A DNA stretch of 64,000 nt. It comes from a plasmid. Location: the NCBI RefSeq assembly GCF_054482595.1, contig NZ_JBTHVH010000004.1; one strand, given 5' to 3'. This document shows positions 30,001-36,000 of this stretch, piece after piece; position 1 is the first letter of the stretch, and each line of letters begins with the position of its first letter. The position numbers were made by a program.

Positions 30001-33000
30001 TGAGCTTGCGTATCTGGTGCTGACTTTGATCCTAGTGCCGACAGTTGTCGCGTCATTGAAGGCATATACTCATGTGGTCTGCCCTGTGCATTTGACGATT
30101 TTTGATGGTACGCTGCCGTATTTGCCGATGCTTGATAGTATGCGTAACACCATTCCTGATAAGTGCTTTCCTGCGGCGCATGCCAGTAGCGGATTTGCGC
30201 TGTTTGCCTTTGCGTTTGCGCCAAGTTTGCGCCGCCGTCGTGGTGCGATCATCATCGTGGTGATGGCATTGGGCTGGGCGATGGGCTGCTATAAGATGAT
30301 TATTGGCGATCATTTTTTGAGCCATACGGTGGTGTCGATGATGCTTGCGTGGGCGATGTCGGCAGGGCTTGCGTGGGTGTTTTTTAAGAAGGGTGAACAA
30401 GTTTAAGACTAAAAGAGAAGGGAGTGAAAATGGAACTGGGCATTATGGTGTGCATCGTGTTGTTACTCTCCGTGGCGGCGGCGTGGATCAGTAATAAGAC
30501 AGTTGATTTGCTCGAAAGATTCTATTTCAAGCGTCCGCTGAGCATGGAGTACGCGGCATGGCTACGTGTAATGTGTGCAGGCTTGTTATTGGTTTTTATT
30601 CAGGTTGCTCCACAATTTACACTTCTGTATACCCTTAAACTTGTCACGCTTATTAATCTTGGAATCCAGACAATGAAATTAAATGGCGTGTACAAATATA
30701 AAAGAACGGGAATTTTGCCTCCGGGAGGGGCACTCTCTAATCTCACCAGACTTAACCCGTTCAAGAAAAAATAAAGTTATGCGCCCGTGAGGGCGCTATT
30801 CATCAAAGGCATTTCGCATAAGCTTGATCATTGCTTTTTTACCAGCTTCAATATTACGAATGTAGCGCATAACCATTTCTTCATTCGACCAGTTCCCCAT
30901 TTCCATAATCTGTGGTAGCGAGTAACCTTCAATATTTAGCTGTATCGCTCCGCCTACACGAACGCTGTGCCCTGTCCAGTAACGAGTTTTAGTCTCATTT
31001 GGATAAAGCTCATTCCACATCTCTTTAAATGCTCGTAAAAGGGAATTTTTGCTGAGCATACCGGCATCGTCCACAGTGTCTTCTTCATCTTCATCGTTCA
31101 GAAGACTTTGCTTAGCACGATAGGGTAGGTTATGCCTTTTAAGAAGTTCAGATAGCTCATTCCCCTTACTCCGAAGCTTCCAGCCGGGTGGCATATAGCC
31201 TGTATCATGGAAATTTACGGCCTGGAAAAGGAATTCATCCGGATGACTGTGCTGATCCATTTTCACGAGGTTCATCAATCTCAAGAGGCAGTTAGTTAAC
31301 TGACGTGTCAGCCGGTAGGTAAGAAGTGTACTAATGTTCGTTTTTGTACGGTATACCGTCAGGTTAAATTCACCGGTCATACTATCCAGAGACAGATCTT
31401 TCAGACGTATACGTCGAATTTCGGATGAACGGAGCAGTGTTTCAAAGCCTGTCCAGATCAGGCACAGGTCACGAAGTTTACGAACTGAGTTTGTAGTACT
31501 GCGTAACTTTATCAGAGCCTTGAGATCGCCAATAAGAAAGGGAGTTGCCTGTTTAGTCGTCTTTCGCTTCCGGGCTTCCGATTGTTTTAAGGCTTCCAGC
31601 ATGTACCATGCTTCAGACGTAATAATCCCGGGCAGGTTAAGCCCTTTTTTATGGATACTATTTAAGGCCTGAAGACAGCTGTTTATGCTGCTTCGTGACA
31701 ATTTGCCTTCAAGATGCCCCATAAACGCAAGCAGAGCGTCCTCAGACACGGGGAGCGAACTTACTGGCCAGTCTGTATGCAACCGGGCATTCGCCAGATA
31801 CCATTCGTTCCATACTCGTAGCCAGTGCAGATAGGTTTTAGCAGTGTTGTATCTCAGATGGGAAAAGTAACGGATCAAGCGTGAAAGCTGTTTATCATGG
31901 TTGCCGAACGTTTCCAGCTGCTGATGCAATTCGCTTTCCGAAAACTGTCTGATCACTGATTGATTCTTCATCCTGCTCACCGGGATACACTGGTTTTAAT
32001 TACAGGTCATTTTAGCACTCATGTACCTGGTTATGAACAGGGTGGAAACAACGAAAAAGGTTGTGAAATCGTTAGGCTTAAGTGAAAAATGATATTAAGA
32101 TTATCCCTGGCCAGTTGAGGCCTGTCTAAAGAAGGTTGATTATGTCTGACACAAAGCAGTCTTATTTAATGAAATTCCGTAAGTGTAGTTCGTTCGAAAC
32201 GCTCGAAAAAGTATTTGAAAGGTTATGTGAAAAAAACTCGGGTGTCGCCTCTCTTGAAATTTCTGGTGCTTATGATCATCGTAAAGCCGAACTGACAATG
32301 AAAAAGTTATATGACAAAGTTCCTGCGAGTGTGTGGACCTTTGTTCGCGAGTAATTATTAATATTGGCACAACAAAAAGACTGTGCCTAGATTTGAAAAT
32401 AGTTTATGCCCCTTTCGGGGCTAAAGGCATTGTAATAGCCTGTCTTTTAAAGTTGTTTATTAAGTTCGGAGAAAAACTTTAATCATAAGCCAAGCCCACT
32501 GCTAAATACATCCGATATTCTCCTTCATTTTATTAGAAGTGATAAAAGTTACTTTACCTAAACTTCTCTCTCAATATTTGTAAGGCTCTCATTTGATTTT
32601 TGTCAAACATTAATCTGGAAGACGGAAAAATCATTTCTTTTAATACGTTTTACAGAAATCCTCCTCCGTTATTTCGGATATAGTTTGAATCATTATCAAA
32701 AACGGGGTGCAGCCATGCGTAAGAGTTATACATTTGGTATTCCATTTGGACTCCAGCGAGAATCAGGACTCTTTTTAGATATTACAGAGGTCAGCCGGGG
32801 TATTGACTGTAACTGCATCTGCCCCGCTTGCAAAACTGATCTGTTAGCAAAGCAGGGGGAGGTCAAGCTTTGGCATTTCTCACACAGTACAGCTGTAGCC
32901 GGTGACTGTGATGGTCTGATGGAAGCCATCCGGGGAAAGATTATTGAAGTCATCAACGAGCACCAGGTTCTTGGTTTCCCAAATCTTCTCGCTGGCGACG

Positions 33001-36000
33001 ATGGTGGGCCGGTTTCACTGAATGAGGTTAGTGGAAGCGGCAGTATGTTCGGAGGCACAGCTGATCTGTTCGTAAAGGTTAATGATTTATGTGTGGCCGT
33101 CTTTCTGGACAGGGATCGCAGCATTTCAGAGAAGTTAACCTTTGACCATCTTCATCCTTCCGAAAGAGTTGCCGCATTGCGTATCGATCTTCCTGATATT
33201 GAATATGAAATCAGTCAGGTGCAGCTCGGGCGACGTAAAACAACATACAGTGAGTGCATTGAAAGCCTGATCATTGATGAGACCAGTTCCCGGGAATGGC
33301 TATATCATCCATTAATGCATGAACTTGAATCTGAACCTCTTCAGGAGTATCGGGGACGGGAGCCTTCAGAGGAAGGGCCTCTTCTTCAGCGCCTTGCTGA
33401 CTGTAAGATGAAATTGCCTGATATCCTTCCGGGCAGTCATAACGCGCTAGTCAGGTTACAGCAGGATACGATTGTATGTCTGTGTCGGTTAACGGTTCGG
33501 GCTTATGACATCGCTCAGACCGATGAATTTCCTTTGTTCCTTCGCTATTTCAGGTTGCACTGCCTGGAAAACAGCGAACATGTCAGTTACGAAAGACTGA
33601 TCTGCTGGCAGGAAATGATTTCAAAAACCCAGGAAGGCCAGTCCTTGACACAAAACGAACTTGAATATCTTCATGAGATTGTCCGCATCGCCTTTTACAA
33701 TCACCGGCTTAACAATGTCAGTATTTCAGATGTTAAAAACCATGACACTGGAAAGAAGAGCGGCAGGGTAGAGTCACAAAATTATTCACTTTTATAAATA
33801 ACTTGGGCTTTGCGCATTAAACCCTTGCCGCAGGCGGTGTACCGCATATCCGGCACAGACAGTCAGTTTTTTCTGGCAGCTTAAATTTGACACTGCTTAA
33901 TATAGTGATTCATTAAACAGGTTCAGTATGCTGCCAGAACGTTTTAGTCGTAATGGGCGTCCGTTAGTTTTCAACTAACTGAACGACGACCAGCCTGCCG
34001 CCTTCCTCCTTTGACAGAACAAACTGAGCGTTATTCGTCAGTTCAATTTTTTCCCCAATGGCAATCTGTCGTTTATCCGGTAATGACATAAGCCCATTTA
34101 TGCCTTCATTTACTAACCACCACTGATCGTTATGGAAAACAAAATACCCAACTCGTTTCCTTTGTGCATCGGTTGTGCGCTCATTTGGCGCAATGAGGCG
34201 ATTCACATGCCACGCATAGATTGACTGCCCGCTCCACACCATCAACCGGTGGTCGTCAGGACGATAACTGCCTTCCTTTCGGGATGAATATAAATTTAGA
34301 ACCGGTAATTTACCCTTGTATGGCGTACCGCAGTAGGGACAAACCGGCTTTGTCTTACCTGAGAAAACGTACCATTTCTGTTCACACGCCTTGTTCTGGC
34401 AGGGCTGTATCAGATCGACTGTTTTAACCAGGGCACTTTCCCACTCATCGGCGGTCGGGCGTTTATTGGCATCGTGTAAGCCATCAATAAAGGCGCGTTC
34501 AAACAAAGGCGTCAAATAAGGGCCCATGATGGTGTAAGGAATTTTCTCCGGGTCAGCCCAGGGCAGTGAAAAGGAGGATAGCTGACTGACTTTGACTGCA
34601 TTGCTTTTGTCTGTCGGATGTTCAATGAAGAGTGCCTTCTCACCCATAGATAAGGTCTCATCACGTACTTCATCCGACATGTCATGTATTTTTCCGCCAC
34701 GTAGCGGATGACGGAAGAACAGATACATGTAGATAAGCACCGACAGCGCATGACGGTCAGTAGAAATGCTTGGCAATACGCGGTTCGGATCCTCTTTGGA
34801 AAGATGGCTGGTTTTCACCACTTCCGGAGCGATAAAATCCGGGGTGCCCACGACGTCGGGAGGATACTTTCCAGGGACAACCAGGCCGTCTACGTCAATG
34901 ATGCAGGCATGTCCCATTTCTGGATCGATAAGCACGTTTTTATAGCTTAGATCGCTGTGACAGAGACCTGCCGCATGCATCCTTCTGACGGCTCTTGTTA
35001 GCAGCAGACAGACCTTGAGATAGGTAAGCGTATTGCCTCGTTCACGTGGGTCGAGAAATTTATTCTGGTTGCTGGCGCTGGCAAACCATTTGCCTTCCTT
35101 TTCACGGCCTTTTATGCCAAGAAAATCATCGTTTTTAGAGCCGTATTTAAAGAAAAAGTAGCTTTTGTAGGTTGGAACCACGATGCCGATTTTATCCCCA
35201 TGCTCAACAACGTGGGTCGGCCAGCAAAACAGGTCCTTCCAGTATTCACCTCCGGACTGGCCAAAAATGTTTTGCCTGTAGCGTCCGGTGATCATATCAA
35301 TCCGATCCCGGGCCTGCTCGTTCTGCGGTTTATGATAAAAAGCGACGACGTATGATTTATCAGGCGAGAAGTAAACATCCTTCATCGAGCCCGAACCAAT
35401 TACCTCGTCAACATACTGGACTGTTTCGCCGTCCTTTGTTTTGCACGTAACAATATTTGCCATATTGATCACCGAAGAAGCGTATCCCTTACCACAACAC
35501 CGCAATAGTGCGGTCATCGTGGTTCCCTGTGGAGAAAAAGTTAAGCCAGTCGCCTAACCTCTCAGGCGCAATACTGGCGTCTGTAAGGACAGGGATGAGC
35601 TCATCAAGGAGACGGGTCCATTTTTCGTCACTGCGAAGCCCGTTATCTGTCTCAAACAGAGGGTCTGATACGCCATCTGTCATGAGGATCAAGTGAGATA
35701 CATCATTCCATTTACCCACGCTGATGCGGCCGCTAAACGAGGGGTCTGCGATAATGCTCTGGTCAAGAAAGCGGGTTTGTCCTGCGTATTCTCCGCTATC
35801 GGGATTTCCCAGTATCCTGACTTTACCGGAAGGGCTGTATGCACCTATCGCACCATCACCAAGCCAGAATGCAGCCGCAAACAGCTCGTTATCAGTTCGT
35901 AGCGCTACAGTTGCCAGTAGGGTTGTTGAATAGGATTTCACAGGTTGTTCTGCACAAATGGCTTCGTTCTGGATACTGTTGACCGCGAGCGTAGCTGCCT

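Follow-up and report, generated by a model that had tools for sequence, protein, structure and literature searches.

A Cre-type recombinase gene with a LexA-like box upstream, a probable dimer resolvase, lies in the core backbone beside the mcr-1 insertion of an IncHI2 plasmid

The window analysed here is a 64,000-nucleotide stretch of plasmid DNA (NCBI RefSeq assembly GCF_054482595.1, contig NZ_JBTHVH010000004.1), of which one segment (30430-33797) had been flagged in an earlier note as carrying a tyrosine recombinase between a small membrane open reading frame (ORF) and a CoiA-like zinc-finger protein, next to an mcr-1 cassette. The flagged segment was 100% identical to IncHI2 plasmid pMCR1_025943 and was found in 1497 PLSDB records, 1096 of which had at least 80% of it covered. 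All three ORFs were present in our ORF listing at the positions given, but the gene list of the note had overlooked hha (32142-32354, plus strand), which lies between the recombinase and zinc-finger genes and is divergent from the former. The recombinase is a Cre-type enzyme and a putative dimer resolvase, and its surroundings comprise the following features, in window coordinates (PGAP, the NCBI Prokaryotic Genome Annotation Pipeline; PWM, position weight matrix):

26012-26974, plus strand: tus homologue (DNA replication terminus site-binding protein), matching the NCBIfam Tus model at E = 2.6e-14, under the curated cut-off, and annotated as Tus by PGAP
26984-27853, plus strand: conserved hypothetical ORF of 301 amino acids in intact backbones and 289 here, with no Pfam or NCBIfam match
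27802-30405, plus strand: mcr-1-pap2 cassette, an ISApl1-less Tn6330 remnant of 2604/2605 bp as measured against the empty site in plasmid pN2-1 (L002)
30430-30774, plus strand: 114-amino-acid small membrane protein, last gene of the tus operon, from the ORF listing
30781-30796, no strand: GC-rich hairpin GCGCCC-GTGA-GGGCGC between convergent genes, from the sequence
30796-31971, minus strand: Cre-type tyrosine recombinase, orthologue of R27 R0183, of 391 amino acids (ATG) or 394 amino acids (GTG at 31980)
31988-32007, minus strand: LexA-box-like palindrome ACCTGTAATTAAAACCAGTG (CTG-N10-CAG), from a PWM scan
32009-32037, minus strand: predicted sigma-70 promoter of the recombinase gene, from a promoter scan
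32142-32354, plus strand: hha, encoding a 70-amino-acid nucleoid-associated co-regulator of the Hha/YmoA family, a partner of H-NS (Pfam HHA, 9.3e-19; NCBIfam Hha, 2.6e-21; PGAP)
32715-33797, plus strand: 360-amino-acid protein with a CoiA_N zinc finger (residues ~28-65), a predicted restriction-endonuclease-like domain (~66-200) and a helical C-terminal domain (~220-335)

The recombinase matched the Pfam Phage_integrase family (PF00589) with 51 bits against a cut-off of 27.1 (E = 1.8e-13), and its catalytic residues R181, K210, H335, R338, W361, and Y370 (numbered in the 391-amino-acid protein) were all present and aligned with the motifs of Cre. All 17 PDB sequences retrieved at E ≤ 1 were Cre or its engineered derivative Tre (best E value 1.9e-23), with the match to Cre spanning residues 40-256, on the side of the N-terminal domain, and residues 332-390, which hold the C-terminal catalytic motifs. 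Because the closest similarity was to Cre across both the N-terminal and the catalytic domains, we assigned the enzyme to the Cre type; it was ~26.6% identical to the Cre genes of P1-like plasmids. Although both domains align with Cre of the bacteriophage P1 Cre/loxP system and the R-K-H-R-W-Y set is shared, the IncHI2 enzyme differs in having a ~50-amino-acid insertion between the lysine-containing hairpin and the HxxR motif, and the element that carries it is a conjugative megaplasmid rather than a phage. The remark in the earlier note that the 394-amino-acid protein is longer than Xer-type recombinases was borne out: the NCBIfam XerC model scored 17 bits against a cut-off of 335, so the protein does not group with the Xer type, and the extra length is accounted for by its being a Cre-type enzyme with the insertion before HxxR. 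The ATG at 31971 is more likely to be the start codon than the GTG at 31980, because PGAP uses the ATG and because it is conserved in the alignment of orthologues.

The function of such an enzyme has been studied in the IncHI1 plasmid R27, which has only one annotated tyrosine recombinase gene (R0183, 'Y-rec'), at 159617-160798. The window recombinase is 64% identical to the R27 enzyme over its full length and has the same neighbours, and from this identity, the synteny, and the single tyrosine recombinase of R27 we take the IncHI2 gene to be the orthologue of R0183. When R0183 is missing, R27 remains stable in a wild-type host and is readily lost in xerC, xerD, or ftsK-ATPase mutants (PMC11724359, Nucleic Acids Res. 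2025), from which the authors concluded that R27 possesses two redundant dimer-resolution systems, the self-encoded recombinase and FtsK-dependent XerCD acting at a dif-like site (PMC11724359). The same study found that the xrs site of the IncHI2 plasmid R478 was recombined in an XerC- and FtsK-dependent manner, and it credits Cre, too, with the resolution of plasmid-prophage dimers (PMC11724359). We consider it very likely that the IncHI2 recombinase is the plasmid's own housekeeping dimer resolvase. Homologous recombination would fuse two sister copies of the plasmid into a dimer, and the recombinase would then restore monomers by recombining, via a Holliday-junction intermediate, the two copies of a specific plasmid site that lie in direct repeat in the dimer. 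Host XerCD/FtsK would work in parallel, at a dif-like site of its own in another part of the plasmid. Within the window we found no R27 or R478 xrs sequence and no XerD arm; the Xer site is located elsewhere on the plasmid, and in R27 xrs is ~24 kb from the recombinase gene. The contribution of the R27 gene to plasmid stability is already known, and the IncHI2 copy is, by its predicted function, a further Cre-type IncHI dimer resolvase.

Plasmid-encoded tyrosine resolvases are familiar from other low-copy plasmids, whose multimers are resolved by enzymes such as ResD/rfsF of F and Rsd/crs of the Salmonella plasmid pSDL2. We liken the IncHI2 enzyme to them in that it is a self-encoded tyrosine recombinase; ResD and Rsd are shorter than the Cre-type enzyme and act at sites immediately 5′ of their genes. 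Two other plasmid loci that we inspected (L007 and L009) encode a Phage_integrase protein of 248-267 amino acids, in the size class of ResD and Rsd, adjoining parF/parG; this is a distinct protein.

The gene order around the recombinase is conserved well beyond IncHI2. The order tus, ORF(s), small ORF, recombinase (convergent), hha (divergent), and CoiA_N protein recurs in IncHI1, and the locus of R27 resembles that of the window both in these neighbours (the tus operon with the 114-amino-acid ORF convergent, hha divergent, and the CoiA_N protein beyond) and in a shared promoter block and LexA-like box, differing in an IS1-RepFIA-IS1 segment that parts hha from the CoiA_N gene. The tus homologue is syntenic in R27, IncHI1B, and IncFIB(K) plasmids. 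An IncHI1B Klebsiella plasmid keeps the order at 67% identity, with a foreign trb segment instead of hha, and IncFIB/IncHI1B Klebsiella plasmids keep it with a recombinase 37% and a CoiA_N protein 34% identical to those of the window; on a metagenome contig, a 37%-identical recombinase lies 3.7 kb from a 33%-identical CoiA_N protein. In the class of at least 95% identity the recombinase occurred in 1128 plasmids and the CoiA_N protein in 1121, and in the 60-80% class in 289 and 291, respectively; these near-equal counts, taken from sequence matches, are the mark of a shared backbone. We are confident that the segment is ordinary core maintenance backbone common to IncHI-type megaplasmids and not a mobile or integrative module. 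The tus operon, hha, and the zinc-finger gene are, in this reading, backbone genes independent of the recombinase.

Several local departures from this order were seen. The pairing of hha with the recombinase was held even in Klebsiella IncFIB(K) plasmids. In the IncHI1B plasmid NZ_CP073055.1 (L005) the foreign DNA, a P-type trb conjugation segment ending in a DUF2274 gene (~6627-6914), abuts the promoter block of the recombinase. In the Klebsiella aerogenes IncFIB/HI1B plasmid NZ_CP103666.1 (L012) an IS1 and a group II intron (ltrA) occupy 3849-6555, between hha and the recombinase; the intron sits between the LexA-like box/promoter and the recombinase start codon, and splicing of the intron may be needed for that recombinase to be expressed.

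The only non-coding block conserved among IncHI2, IncHI1, and IncHI1B comprised the 87 bp upstream of the recombinase start. This block contains the predicted promoter (32037-32009; TTCATA, a 17-nucleotide spacer, and TAAAAT, with an extended -10 TG, giving TTCATA-17-TGcTAAAAT), and directly downstream of the promoter, between the -10 hexamer and the ribosome-binding site and start codon, lies the palindrome ACCTGTAATTAAAACCAGTG (32007-31988), which is two positions off the LexA operators of recN and ColE1. The window box scored 15.3 with our LexA PWM, the top score of the 64 kb (next best 10.1). At the corresponding loci of relatives, the R27 box scored 19.1, second in all 180 kb after umuD, and the boxes of L005 (17.0), L006 and L012 (21.2 each; an identical box, counted as one lineage), and L010 (14.4) were each the top match; the boxes lie at 19582 in L004, 6965 in L005, 6871 in L006, 4600 in L012, and 4302 in L010. 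As positive controls, the umuD operator in R27 scored 23.6 and dinI in L007/L009 scored 23.9. A LexA-like box is thus kept in five sequence-distinct lineages, down to 37% recombinase identity, and its CTG and CAG triplets persist where the flanking DNA no longer aligns, which makes a host factor, and not the co-evolving recombinase, the likelier ligand. An alternative use of the conserved block, as a core site of the recombinase, was rejected: its partial repeat ACCTG-N8-CAGGT is not kept in R27, and a promoter with a LexA box fits the block better.

On balance we favour, with some reserve, LexA control of the recombinase gene. The recombinase would then be expressed more strongly during SOS induction, the time at which dimers are most likely to form through RecA. 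The literature that we searched contained no report of SOS control of IncHI recombinases, and the LexA-box-like palindrome upstream of the gene appears to be new here. A comparable arrangement is that of the LexA-controlled integron integrases IntI, likewise tyrosine recombinases whose genes have a LexA box over the promoter or 5′ region (PMC3108266); IntI belongs to another recombinase subfamily and acts on another substrate, and LexA control in the present case is a sequence-based prediction.

We searched for the recombination site using published lox-like criteria (arms of 11-15 bp, an 8-bp spacer, up to two asymmetries, within 1 kb of the gene; PMC10250229) and in scans of our own (arms of 11-15 bp, spacers of 4-10 bp, up to 2-3 mismatches) that covered window positions 20000-40000 and the homologous regions of R27, L005, L006, L012, and L010. 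No candidate site was conserved in position across these loci, so the earlier note's proposal to look for recombinase core sites in the flanking DNA drew a blank. In the Klebsiella homologues, a 13-8-13 repeat (ACCAGCACTCAGC-AACATGTT-ACTGAGCGCTGGT) follows the recombinase stop codon by 18 bp (8071-8104 in L006, ~7709-7742 in L012); it fits the lox-like criteria and was the sole 13-8-13 match adjoining a recombinase gene. It may equally be a bidirectional terminator, as its spacer is palindromic and it occupies the position of a convergent terminator. IncHI plasmids have a short GC hairpin at this position.

Two further repeats in the window were considered and set aside. One, the 15-4-15 palindrome at 20298-20331, falls in the gap separating two ORFs of an operon further upstream; it overlaps an alternative hairpin and is absent from R27, and was rejected as a recombinase site. 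In full, the region 20298-20336 consists of a perfect 15-bp inverted repeat with a 4-nucleotide centre (TTTCTCCCATAGGGA/TCCCTATGGGAGAAA) and an overlapping second perfect repeat of 13 bp, in a 68-bp gap between two ~300-amino-acid ORFs that belong to a run of similar-sized ORFs; the repeats look like two alternative RNA hairpins. The other, at 38212-38248, is a perfect 15-bp inverted repeat with a 7-nucleotide loop (ACAGAAAGGTGCTGC ... GCAGCACCTTTCTGT) inside the terY ORF, in the 5′ part of a long TerY-C ORF; as PGAP places the start of that ORF further downstream, this hairpin may be an intergenic terminator between terY genes.

From sequence, then, we infer that the IncHI2 enzyme shares the function of its R27 orthologue, that its gene is under LexA control, and that its mechanism is Cre-like. 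Against this picture stand the following observations. Direct data on function come from the R27 enzyme only, and were obtained by plasmid loss rather than by a resolution assay. Neither within 1 kb of the recombinase gene nor over several kb around it did IncHI2 (25500-34200) or R27 show a lox-like palindrome. Finally, with the PWM, which was built from 22 E. coli LexA boxes, a score of at least 15.3 was reached somewhere in 36 of 200 shuffled 64-kb windows (18%), so the case for LexA is carried by the position of the box and its conservation across lineages and not by its score.

The mcr-1-pap2 cassette has its own history. The junction between cassette and backbone lies at 30405/30406, 24 bp 5′ of the small ORF, and in plasmids without mcr-1 the match began at query base 7, which is window position 30406. 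The empty site in pN2-1 reads CTTAAAGA|GACTAAAAG; relative to it, the window has an insert of 2604/2605 bp at 27802-30405, which takes away the 3′ end of the 301-amino-acid ORF. Comparison with this empty site revealed no ISApl1, no unambiguous target-site duplication, and no recombinase-type core repeat at the ends of the insert. An mcr-1-pap2 unit of ~2609 bp is mobilised as the ISApl1 composite transposon Tn6330, and most copies of mcr-1-pap2 are without one or both ISApl1 (PMC5821093; PMC8770973). The insert, a ~2.6-kb unit in an otherwise intact target, has the form of a Tn6330-derived cassette. Ordinary ISApl1 (Tn6330) transposition very likely placed it in the 3′ end of the tus-operon ORF, after which its IS copies were lost; the recombinase had no part in either step.

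Two other accounts of the recombinase deserve weighing. The earlier note had suggested that the recombinase, the small ORF, and the zinc-finger protein form a recombination hot spot or an unrecognised integrative module, one that would have captured mcr-1. The cassette does end only 391 bp from the 3′ end of the recombinase gene, and ISVsa5, IS100, IS5, and IS1 have inserted within the segment in individual plasmids, but the rest of the evidence runs the other way, and we regard such a module as very improbable. The insert is the standard 2.6-kb Tn6330-derived unit (PMC5821093; PMC8770973); the backbone site around it is clean, and neither of its ends carries a recombinase-type core repeat. 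Its right (pap2/backbone) junction was common to 86 plasmids and its ISApl1-less left junction to 35, while more than 1000 IncHI2 plasmids had the site empty, and several IncHI2-sized plasmids carried mcr-1 elsewhere with the empty site at a separate place. Because 86 plasmids share one junction and most IncHI2 sites are empty, the distribution across IncHI2 plasmids, a comparison that the note had called for, fits one transposition event inherited by descent and not a hot spot. Nor did the segment have the boundaries of an integrative element (a synteny break with flanking direct repeats): both flanks were syntenic backbone in four plasmid lineages, including IncHI1, IncHI1B, and FIB plasmids. 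A second account would keep the recombinase as a plasmid gene and give it a main role other than dimer resolution, namely SOS-inducible programmed rearrangement (formation or resolution of co-integrates, inversion, or excision), with the R27 stability phenotype secondary. The conserved LexA-like operator resembles that of the integron integrases (PMC3108266), our scans did not locate a native recombination site, the foreign trb segment of the one IncHI1B plasmid is joined ~90 bp upstream of the recombinase start in place of hha, and Cre itself has roles besides dimer resolution (PMC11724359). Yet the R27 deletion plasmid is lost only if Xer/FtsK has been disabled as well, the hallmark of redundant dimer resolution; the gene stays beside tus in fixed synteny in every lineage; and the repeat scans revealed no segment bounded by paired core-like repeats, whether inverted or direct. 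We consider programmed rearrangement unlikely, and dimer resolution remains our preferred reading.

The tus operon, into which the cassette inserted, begins with the plasmid-encoded Tus homologue as its first recognisable gene, followed by the 301-amino-acid ORF and the 114-amino-acid membrane ORF. The insertion splits this operon, replacing the last residues of the 301-amino-acid ORF and detaching the small ORF. Near tus, a window scan for E. coli-type Ter sites gave a number of matches no greater than expected by chance. The 114-amino-acid protein has two hydrophobic stretches (residues 1-25 and ~39-70) and matched no family in Pfam, NCBIfam, and PADLOC profile scans; its 78% identity to the R27 counterpart indicates that it is a real gene, and the ORF found at its position in IncFIB(K) plasmids was not homologous to it. 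The earlier note had it flanking the recombinase, which holds as far as adjacency goes; the small gene is, however, convergent with the recombinase gene, and in plasmids without mcr-1 it overlaps the preceding 301-amino-acid ORF by 65 nucleotides, which assigns it to the tus operon and not to the recombinase. Between the two convergent genes, the hairpin at 30781-30796 is probably a bidirectional terminator: its stem is kept, with a variable loop, in IncHI1 and IncHI1B. Our terminator scan did not list it.

The remaining gene of the segment encodes the 360-amino-acid protein, whose CoiA-like zinc finger, as the earlier note had described it, was upheld by a match to Pfam CoiA_N (PF25164) above the cut-off (32.5 bits against 26.3; E = 6.3e-8). 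The motif consists of C32-x-C34-x-C36-P-x-C39 and W53-H-F-S-H57, and C32, C34, C36, C39, H54, H57, and C65 were invariant or nearly so in 89 distant relatives, in which P89, D117, R/K135, K/R193, and W195-x-x-H198-P199 were also conserved. In the alignment of relatives there was no conserved acidic residue where the canonical (D/E)xK or beta-3 acid is expected. Close homologues were few and plasmid-borne, and a profile search retrieved 4029 relatives at E ≤ 0.001, mostly ~300 amino acids long and aligned over residues 9-210. All 61 members sampled carried CoiA_N or overlapping zinc-finger domains of unknown function; none of the 61 matched the CoiA nuclease family PF06054 at E ≤ 0.01, and the query and five relatives had no match to it at E ≤ 10. 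The predicted structure of residues 1-215 (from 97 sequences) had a predicted local distance difference test (pLDDT) score of 94.9. A Foldseek search with it returned no significant match, with the restriction-endonuclease fold class heading the list. The C-terminal part is helical and restricted to closer relatives.

CoiA of Bacillota combines a C2H2-type zinc finger, a PD-(D/E)xK core (D in beta-2, E in beta-3), and a C-terminal extension, and is a structure-specific endonuclease that acts as a displacement-loop (D-loop) resolvase in competence and is reported to be restricted to Bacillota (bioRxiv 10.1101/2024.02.06.579203). The IncHI protein resembles it in this three-part layout of zinc finger, predicted restriction-endonuclease-type core, and C-terminal extension, but differs in having no PF06054 match, no conserved beta-3 acidic residue, and another C-terminal domain, and in being encoded on an Enterobacteriaceae plasmid backbone, outside the competence regulon of Bacillota. 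The protein looks like a CoiA-type zinc-finger nuclease but, because both the nuclease-domain and the taxonomic comparison fail, is not, judging by its sequence, a CoiA orthologue or a member of the CoiA family. The earlier note had held that its suggestion would fall if the recombinase were a known multimer-resolution enzyme and the zinc-finger protein had no nuclease or competence homology; the first part agrees with the orthology to the R27 dimer-resolution enzyme, whereas the second does not, as the protein has CoiA_N homology and a predicted nuclease-type fold.

Two possibilities for its role may be set side by side. It may be a stand-alone nuclease for anti-phage or anti-plasmid defence or for DNA repair, tied to the recombinase only by ancestry in the same backbone, a possibility that we take seriously but think doubtful. 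One anti-phage system identified in E. coli is a CoiA-domain protein (PMC9519451), the zinc finger and central domain are shared by the ~4000 distant relatives, the structure matches were of the restriction-endonuclease-fold type, and on other plasmids a 41%-identical homologue (P0013) has as neighbours a DUF6933 protein and an AAA_16/STAND-like nucleoside triphosphatase (NTPase) but no Cre-like recombinase. Set against this, PADLOC assigned the 360-amino-acid protein to no defence family (a weak CorA-like match had E = 0.002 and 14.8 bits), the canonical (D/E)xK is not conserved, leaving only D117 and R/K135, and the CoiA_N gene lies within a few kb of a Cre-like recombinase in IncHI2, IncHI1, and Klebsiella plasmids and on the metagenome contig (33-37% identity). 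Less probable still, to our minds, is that a LexA-repressed resolvase and its CoiA_N partner would together form a DNA-damage-responsive module near tus that processes dimers, D-loops, or junctions. The loci with the 41%-identical homologue (6169-9038 in L007, 1019-3888 in L009), in which it directly follows the DUF6933 protein and the AAA_16/STAND-like NTPase, are reminiscent of defence loci.

Beyond the segment, the neighbours on the 5′ side are pap2, mcr-1, the hypothetical ORF, and the tus homologue. Those on the 3′ side, at 33964-38370 on the minus strand, encode a protein kinase (Pkinase/Kdo matches), a PP2C phosphatase, and a vWA/TerY-C protein, and are the terY-side signalling genes of a tellurite-resistance cluster.

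IncHI2 plasmids rank among the main vehicles of mcr-1 and of other resistance genes, and the redundancy of the recombinase and Xer/FtsK in R27 implies that plasmid curing would need to hit both. If the conserved operator is what it appears to be, quinolones and other SOS inducers are predicted to raise expression of the recombinase, and if the coupled module of resolvase and CoiA_N protein were true, SOS-inducing antibiotics would directly tune the stability and rearrangement of mcr-1-carrying plasmids. Were its native site located, this widespread Cre-type enzyme would provide a further, orthogonal system of the Cre kind.

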